DNA of 43,679 nt from the IMG/VR virus record IMGVR_UViG_2711768009_000009; one strand, given 5' to 3'. The position numbers and the translations under genes were made by a program. Source of the stretch: a virus. Its lineage: Duplodnaviria > Heunggongvirae > Uroviricota > Caudoviricetes. The notes beneath the pieces were generated by a model that ran no database searches, was not told the origin of the DNA, and saw nothing but the letters and a program-made list of their open reading frames with translations. Below, one piece after another: positions 5,627 to 5,920 of the stretch (positions are counted from its first letter, which is position 1; each line of letters starts with the position of its first letter).

Positions 5627-5920
5627 ATGGACAATCATGTAACGACGAGAAATCGAAAAATGATTGAAAATGCGGAAATCTATAATGATTATTTTTCCGA
5701 TTATTCAGATGCCTGCAAATACAGTTCGAGTGCGGGAGAGTTCATATGCTTCAACTTTTTTATTAAATCTTATGTTTTTCCTCCACAGCAAGAAGATGGA
5801 GGTGTGCCACCTCCTGAAATCACTTTGCACCGTATAGCCTCCGTCTCAATGATGGAGCAACAGGCTAATGAGCTGTATAGCATTCTGGGAACGATTCTAC
5901 AAAAGCGTGAATCGGACTAA
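5627..5920 (+). CDS. Hypothetical protein (97 aa), AT-rich cargo gene convergent with the prophage late genes
   Basis: ORF track; ATG with AAGAGG RBS 6 nt upstream; long open frame in ~38% GC DNA; no recognisable domain. Confidence 0.5.
   Translation: MDNHVTTRNRKMIENAEIYNDYFSDYSDACKYSSSAGEFICFNFFIKSYVFPPQQEDGGVPPPEITLHRIASVSMMEQQANELYSILGTILQKRESD

Follow-up and report, generated by a model that had tools for sequence, protein, structure and literature searches.

What is a short, AT-rich reading frame doing beside the mom control region of a Mu-like prophage, on the strand opposite to mom? The question is raised by the IMG/VR virus record IMGVR_UViG_2711768009_000009 (Caudoviricetes), a stretch of 43,679 nucleotides that we refer to as the window, and in particular by a plus-strand open reading frame (ORF) of 97 codons at positions 5627 to 5920. 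An initial annotation, made by reading the letters of the window, had pointed out this ORF, thought it horizontally acquired and recognised no domain in it. The interpretation that we prefer, at odds slightly better than even, is that the ORF is a horizontally acquired accessory gene, or "moron", lodged in a swap-slot that is bounded by the com/mom control region on one side and by the terminator of the esterase-DUF1378-DUF826 genes on the other, and that it encodes a small oligomeric binding protein. Morons are accessory cassettes that temperate phages carry as autonomous units, for example bor and lom of lambda and gp15 of HK97. Genes of this kind, small prophage passengers of unknown function, are common; what is new is the swap-slot beside Pmom, a corrected start codon, a link to a family found at prophage ends, and a fold predicted with medium confidence.

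A variable slot beside the mom control region

The ORF sits within a block of sequence that is foreign to most related prophages. The relevant features are as follows.

5371..5465, minus strand: com/mom control region, left border of the slot; aligns with the Pmom region of Mu (AATCAATTAAATCGATCG...GATCGATT)
5466..6053, plus strand: accessory cassette (leader, ORF and 3' region), delimited by homology breakpoints; GC (guanine plus cytosine) content 39.5%
5466..5626, plus strand: 5' leader of the cassette, AT-rich, 88% identical to that of genome CI5
5616-5621, plus strand: Shine-Dalgarno sequence AAGAGG, 5 nucleotides before the ATG, read from the sequence
5627..5920, plus strand: protein-coding gene (the ORF), ATG start, 97 amino acids, from the ORF list
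5921..6053, plus strand: 3' region of the cassette, poorly conserved, 60% identical to that of CI5
5965-5979, plus strand: terminator-like hairpin
6002-6030, plus strand: hairpin (-16.6 kcal/mol, z -4.2)
6055..6081, both strands: shared hairpin AAACCGG...CCGGTTT, right border of the slot, directly past the DUF826 stop codon and kept in all four lineages compared

In a four-way alignment of the window with CI5, M18 and Mu_JNE082796, the sequences are common up to about 5465 and again from about 6054, with a short echo of GAAAnGTCAT extending to about 5488. When positions 5170-6342 were compared by megablast with 5426 complete E. coli genomes, 233 gave matches and 18 of these held the whole cassette; most matches (more than 200 genomes) end at query position 296, which is window position 5465. 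The supposed horizontal acquisition is thus borne out by sharp breakpoints at about 5465 and 6054, and by a cassette that occurs in 18 of 233 genomes with the same com and control region. The placement given by the initial annotation, between the mom upstream region and the cargo terminators, also holds: com and mom lie to the left, and hairpins precede DUF826 on the right. The border hairpin at 6055-6081, a probable two-way terminator, has a folding energy of -16.7 kcal/mol (z -4.0) on the minus strand; on the plus strand, the energy is -12.6 kcal/mol and UUUGUAUUGUU comes next.

Most relatives lack the ORF, their slot being filled by another cassette. In M18 the occupant is a 175-residue zinc-ribbon/membrane protein (L004 6370-6897; phrog_13160), in O157:H7 (L019 4579-4773) and Mu_JNE082796 it is a 64-residue protein with four cysteines in a CxxC...CxxC arrangement, and in FORC_069 (L018 3108-3513) it is a 68-residue plus-strand ORF together with an annotated minus-strand gene of 66 residues (66-78 residues as an ORF). 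In every cassette seen, the plus-strand ORF is directed away from com. PADLOC gave no match for the alternative occupants. The initial annotation had named interruption or absence in close relatives, without expression, as grounds for rejecting the ORF. It is indeed absent from most and broken in a minority, but where the cassette is present the ORF is usually intact and under purifying selection.

The cassette resembles phage morons in several respects. It sits between conserved phage modules, is absent from close relatives and has a deviant base composition; its ORF runs counter to the late genes and has hairpins downstream. A swap-slot beside the mom control region of Mu-like phages has not been described previously. 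The cassette holds a single conserved ORF, and so lacks the two adjacent, co-oriented small genes by which a type II toxin-antitoxin pair would be recognised. A second, upstream ORF at 5541-5642 (33 residues) loses its ATG in M3 and ends differently in CI5, and we discarded it.

Three further candidate elements in the cassette were rejected. A direct repeat near its ends (AACACGAAAT / AATACGAAAT) is short and not kept in CI5, and was treated as chance. A possible pairing of 5541-5552 in the leader with 5627-5638 at the start codon shows no compensatory change and is broken by a substitution in M3, and is likewise put down to chance. Finally, an apparent minus-strand terminator inside the ORF (5814-5798) depends on a palindrome that is broken in CI5. 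An Rfam scan of 5150-6400 returned a single sub-threshold match, to IS102 (21 bits versus a gathering threshold of 46, E 0.57), and ARAGORN found no transfer RNA in the window.

The variability of the slot bears on whether the 97-residue protein works with Mom. It could regulate mom, or serve as a partner of Mom in anti-restriction, being transcribed divergently from the control region. The ORF does adjoin Pmom in divergent orientation, the divergent promoter momP2 of Mu has an unsettled role, and many anti-restriction proteins are, like this one, small and acidic. Against this stands the constancy of the control region while the content of the slot varies, from which it follows that mom works with at least four other neighbours. 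Moreover, the content of the slot is independent of the modification gene, since the same 64-residue occupant adjoins com-mom in O157:H7 and com plus a C5 methyltransferase in Mu_JNE082796. The protein has a sister family, described below, in lambdoid prophages, whose examined regions yielded no call of mom. With 14% acidic residues the protein is also, in our judgement, far from a DNA mimic. We therefore regard a role in mom function as improbable.

The reading frame is under selection as a protein-coding gene

All 29 full-length copies that we fetched (29/29) are open from the upstream ATG. They represent seven haplotypes of 97 or 100 codons, which reach down to about 85% identity in DNA and 78% in protein. 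We estimate the probability that a frame stays open for 97 codons by chance, at about 40% GC, as roughly 0.002 for each start. Comparison of the ORF in the window with that in CI5 shows 13.8 synonymous and 21.2 non-synonymous differences, and the ratio of non-synonymous to synonymous substitution rates (dN/dS) is 0.34 in the frame of the ORF, as compared with 0.77 and 1.13 in the alternative frames; the synonymous excess in the ORF frame is significant (binomial p = 0.005). The two versions differ in length only by a C-terminal change that keeps the frame. The window and CI5 are 88% identical in the leader and 85% identical in the ORF; identity falls to 60% directly past the stop codon, and rises to 92% in the shared hairpin and DUF826. 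Collectively, these comparisons indicate that 5627-5920 is a genuine gene and not an artefact.

The composition of the gene sets it apart. As the initial annotation had observed, the stretch is AT-rich: GC content is 39.8% in the ORF and 34.4% in the 256 nucleotides upstream, versus 53.1% in the prophage and 52.9% in the neighbouring cargo genes. The good ribosome-binding site assigned to the ORF is also present, and a Shine-Dalgarno sequence (GAGAGG or AAGAGG) is kept in CI5 and M3. The PGAP annotation places the start at an internal codon, 5660, giving a product of 86 residues. We rejected this start, whose methionine is threonine in CI5; the 11 codons upstream of it are open and conserved in all haplotypes. 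The 97-residue product is favoured because both the Shine-Dalgarno sequence and the upstream ATG are conserved, while the internal methionine is not, and the start codon in the public annotation would accordingly be moved from the 86- to the 97-residue form.

The deduced protein has a mass of 11.2 kDa, an isoelectric point of 4.74, a net charge of about -6 (-6.3) and 12 aromatic residues, and has no transmembrane segment. It would be an acidic, soluble protein with neither a catalytic nor a DNA-binding signature.

A sister family at prophage ends

Searches with the 97-residue protein at first suggest an orphan. It has no match in Pfam, PHROGs (best E 0.26), NCBIfam or PADLOC, and relaxing the Pfam and PADLOC searches to E values up to 10 gave none either. 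Sequence searches of the PDB, with single-family and joint profiles, gave nothing. A search of 5.8 billion proteins recovered E. coli and Shigella copies alone, at 78% identity or more, and an exhaustive phmmer search of 1.84 billion representatives recovered the protein's own clusters alone. There is no copy in a set of one genome per GTDB species, or on plasmids, and searching the literature for the RefSeq accession was fruitless.

Against phage genomes, tblastn produced a single weak match (E 0.01), to URC09907.1, a 98-residue hypothetical protein of Escherichia phage vB_EcoS-733R5, which is collinear with the ORF protein and 29-33% identical to it over 80 residues. This match leads to an unnamed sister family of about 100 residues, comprising 11 clusters (P0135-P0145) from Klebsiella, Raoultella, Lelliottia, Enterobacter, Citrobacter and E. 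coli, the largest of which is found on 633 contigs. Comparison of the ORF family with the P0135 family by hhalign gave a probability of 95.6% (E 1.1e-8, 80 columns), and tblastn of the sister family against the window gave E values of 1e-7 to 1e-5. Fifteen positions are invariant across the ORF and the sister family: I13, E14, D21, F23, Y32, F45, P52, G58, R69, S72, V73, A80, L83, L87 and L91. The sister family, too, is without a Pfam or PHROG assignment. The statement that no domain can be recognised therefore stands for the named families of Pfam, PHROGs, NCBIfam and PADLOC, but the protein is not a complete orphan. Judged by these alignments, it belongs to a family that is small and unnamed, and restricted to prophages of enterobacteria.

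Another relationship was considered and dropped. DUF3467 (PF11950) has a similar length and a superficially similar motif (Y-S-x...SS-EF-x-x-[DN]F ... R[IV]..S....A..L...L). A consensus of DUF3467 does match PF11950, and real members were collected for comparison; hhalign gave a probability of 1.5%, the hidden Markov model scored about 0 bits, and the Smith-Waterman score equalled the mean of shuffled sequences.

The sister gene has a distinctive setting. Like the ORF it is AT-rich, with 40% GC versus 56% in flanking host DNA; it stands at the junction to the host genes and, in loci that show tail-fibre genes, runs on the other strand from these. In all of the 13 sister loci (13/13; L020-L030, L042, L043; e.g. 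L021 6001-6931), the gene of 98-105 residues is followed by one for an acidic protein of 81 residues and then by one for a protein of 128-131 residues. The trio is found at three host sites in Klebsiella, Enterobacter and E. coli, namely fadL-mlaA-yfdC, a site beside a Metallophos-family gene, and one other. Downstream are UmuD/UmuC-like genes in most loci and insertion sequence (IS) transposase genes in one; the loci at the yfdC site additionally carry retron reverse transcriptase or HNH genes and tail-fibre genes. The trio directly adjoins host genes and, by our reading, stands where a prophage or mobile element ends. A promoter, TTGnnT-16-TATGAT as read from the sequences, precedes the sister gene in three diverged contexts. 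The 128-residue partner matches phrog_5954, which is of unknown function; the partner proteins otherwise have no Pfam, PADLOC or PDB match. Neither the 81- nor the 128-residue partner has left any trace in the window or in any Mu-like locus. Hence, while the sister gene leads a three-gene unit with a clear promoter in lambdoid phages, the window gene is solitary, in a Mu-like phage, and lacks such a promoter.

These associations raise the possibility that the product of the ORF serves in prophage defence or superinfection exclusion or, conversely, that it is an anti-defence decoy whose source was the lead gene of the module in competing prophages. Consistent with this, the slot is variable, lies at a prophage end and is read on the strand opposite to the late genes. 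The sister family occurs at prophage ends beside variable retron reverse transcriptase and HNH genes and is linked to its partners in each of the 13 loci, and the window gene is solitary. On the other hand, PADLOC has no match for the ORF, for the sister protein and its partners (at E values up to 0.1) or for the alternative occupants of the slot, and the argument is purely one of guilt by association. We consider such a role unlikely. What these findings do establish is a tie between an apparent orphan and a widespread, unnamed enterobacterial prophage family that heads a conserved three-gene module, and this module deserves functional study.

A predicted beta-beta-beta-alpha fold

Modelling of the protein with AlphaFold and a joint alignment of 17 sequences gave a mean predicted local distance difference test score (pLDDT) of 73.8, with values of 74-94 in the core. 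A first alignment of 7 sequences had given an all-helical model with a pLDDT of 50.7, which was discarded. The 17-sequence model has strands at residues 19-34, 37-51 and 64-76, followed by a helix at 77-96. With medium confidence, the protein is thus predicted to form a beta-hairpin followed by one more strand and, at the C-terminus, an amphipathic helix (beta-beta-beta-alpha). Foldseek found nothing significant in the PDB or BFVD.

A beta-beta-beta-alpha shape of this sort is normally an interlocked dimer, as in the COMM, PC4 and PUR domains. The predicted fold weakly resembles these dimerising folds (COMM, PC4/Sub1, PUR), a likeness that does not imply membership in their families. The resemblance invites the proposal that the ORF encodes a single-stranded nucleic-acid-binding protein of the PC4/Whirly/PUR type. 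The basic surface expected of a nucleic-acid binder is, however, not found, the isoelectric point being 4.74 and the net charge -6.3, and we judge this proposal highly improbable. Under our preferred interpretation, the accessory gene would encode a small oligomeric binding protein rather than an enzyme, and the target of this protein may be a component of the host or of a competing phage.

Expression signals and weighing of the evidence

How the gene might be expressed can be approached from its orientation. Since its direction is the reverse of that of the late operon and Pmom, its product would be made outside the late lytic programme, and the gene would probably be expressed in the lysogen. 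In Mu, RNA polymerase occupies the divergent promoter momP2 in the absence of the activator C, and C moves the polymerase to momP1 (PMC3378877, PMC4287176). By analogy, transcription of the ORF may start at a divergent counterpart of momP2. The feeding of the slot by such a promoter, an idea drawn from this behaviour of polymerase in Mu, is attractive but unproven; Mu has a divergent momP2 at Pmom, whereas the window has a candidate counterpart only.

That candidate is TTGATA (5451-5456)-17-TGTCAT (5474-5479), the sole promoter-like match conserved in all lineages. The best-scoring promoter-like sequence, TTGCCA-18-GACAAT at 5606-5635, overlaps the start codon and is not kept in CI5, and was rejected.

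Several observations weigh against our interpretation. A consensus scan found no conserved, good sigma-70 promoter for the ORF, and the conserved candidate just described lies across the slot border, with a poor -10 element. Neighbouring genes have lower dN/dS values (0 for com and 0.08 for DUF826), so selection on the ORF is weaker. In different natural copies, IS1 is inserted in the ORF after residue 37 or after residue 67 (clusters P0011 and P0014; locus L016 1-745), and frameshifted forms (P0012 and P0013) map to a T6 run at about 5755. The fold model was obtained from only 17 sequences. Lastly, the partners of the sister gene are missing in the window, where the gene is solitary and strongly diverged, and its function may therefore not transfer.

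Some of these points would be expected if the ORF were a chance or decaying frame, without function, in an AT-rich spacer that travels with the mom regulatory region. Such an explanation would accommodate the lack of a clear promoter, the lack of homologues beyond a narrow set and of any match to a known family, the IS1-interrupted and frameshifted copies, and a dN/dS that is only moderate. It is harder to reconcile with 29 open copies that diverge down to 78% protein identity with their one length change in frame, with a synonymous excess confined to the ORF frame, and with a Shine-Dalgarno sequence and start that are kept while conservation collapses just past the stop codon. Nor would a spacer be expected to have, in unrelated prophages of other genera, a homologue that is collinear and equally long, or to yield a compact predicted fold. 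That some natural copies are broken implies instead that the gene is dispensable, as accessory genes are. There is, in our estimation, little chance that the ORF is non-functional.

It is tempting to go further. The slot on the Pmom side might be a general site of lysogeny-phase expression, in which a conserved, divergent momP2-like promoter at the edge of the mom control region drives any passenger and is shut off when C moves polymerase to Pmom, and the 97-residue protein might be a solitary, diverged lead gene product that acts as a decoy or antagonist of the three-gene module, or as an exclusion factor. We offer this combined scheme as a long shot. Regardless, the slot provides a natural test of the purpose of divergent promoters of the momP2 type.

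The mom control region and its surroundings

The genes that flank the slot are listed below.

4479-5216, minus strand: mom (Pfam Mom, E 1.6e-77)
5170-5370, minus strand: com (Pfam Zn_ribbon_Com)
6088-6342, minus strand: DUF826 (Pfam)
6378-6572, minus strand: DUF1378 (Pfam)
6705-8759, minus strand: DUF6645/SASA esterase, 684 amino acids (Pfam)
about 8850-9420: gin, read by eye in the window

The window holds an Sp18-type, Mu-like transposable prophage in reverse orientation. Toward its right end the order is G segment, gin, esterase-DUF1378-DUF826, plus-strand ORF, com, mom and end. In O157:H7 and Mu_JNE082796, gin is annotated as a recombinase or can be read as an ORF. The ORF occupies the same place in the genome as the gin-Pmom junction of Mu, directly upstream of the com/mom promoter. 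The difference is that in Mu gin itself adjoins Pmom on its upstream side and shares a strand with com, whereas in these prophages gin lies beyond the esterase cargo.

The name "mom control region" for 5371-5465 is justified by its sequence, part of which is shared with Mu; a DNA search of phage genomes gave a 77-bp match to this region as its sole result. All relatives have kept this region, and among the window, CI5, M18 and Mu_JNE082796 it varies little or not at all. It contains a perfect palindrome, ATCGATCG-N7-CGATCGAT (5415-5437), with two GATC sites, which is unique in the window and lies just 10 nucleotides upstream of the likely -10 element of Pmom (TAAAGAT). In Mu, a C-binding site and about 41 nucleotides separate the last GATC from the -10 element, and the GATC palindrome of the window is some 29 nucleotides nearer to the com start than is the last GATC of Mu. 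On the plus strand, the same palindrome resembles a terminator, followed by a T-rich run.

The right end of the prophage (TATAGCGCGGCGATTTTTTTGATACC..., from about 4352) meets unrelated host DNA in four genomes: an apparent IS66-type fragment in the window, citF in JE86-ST05, an xdh gene in CI5 and flgL in M3. Further copies of the prophage adjoin flhC, lptG, eutH and other host genes. In each copy of the ORF examined, the gene is in the same slot while the prophage is at a different host site. In JE86-ST05 (NZ_AP022815.1), three places match the ORF region, two of which were confirmed at different chromosomal sites; the three matches suggest recent replicative transposition. In one of these copies many prophage genes are annotated as frameshifted, possibly as a result of assembly errors.

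Mu_JNE082796, which resides inside the Stx2c phage LC727881 (L005 4762-5814), has com followed by a 350-residue C5 cytosine DNA methyltransferase (Pfam DNA_methylase, E 2e-42) in place of mom. Apparently, then, the position controlled by Com can host a different DNA-modification enzyme.

Two stretches of the window have an apparent GC content of 14-16%, which is due to masked runs of N and is not their real composition. The masked runs, at 9413-9668 and 10800-11030, fall in the gin/G-segment and tail-fibre region. To the left of the prophage end, window positions 1-4351 match ipaH3, which encodes an E3 ligase effector of type III secretion, and prophage tail-fibre genes, and the bacterium that harbours the prophage is probably Shigella or enteroinvasive E. 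coli; a 152-residue ORF at 3802-4260 looks, from a reading of its sequence, like the C-terminal part of an IS66-family transposase.
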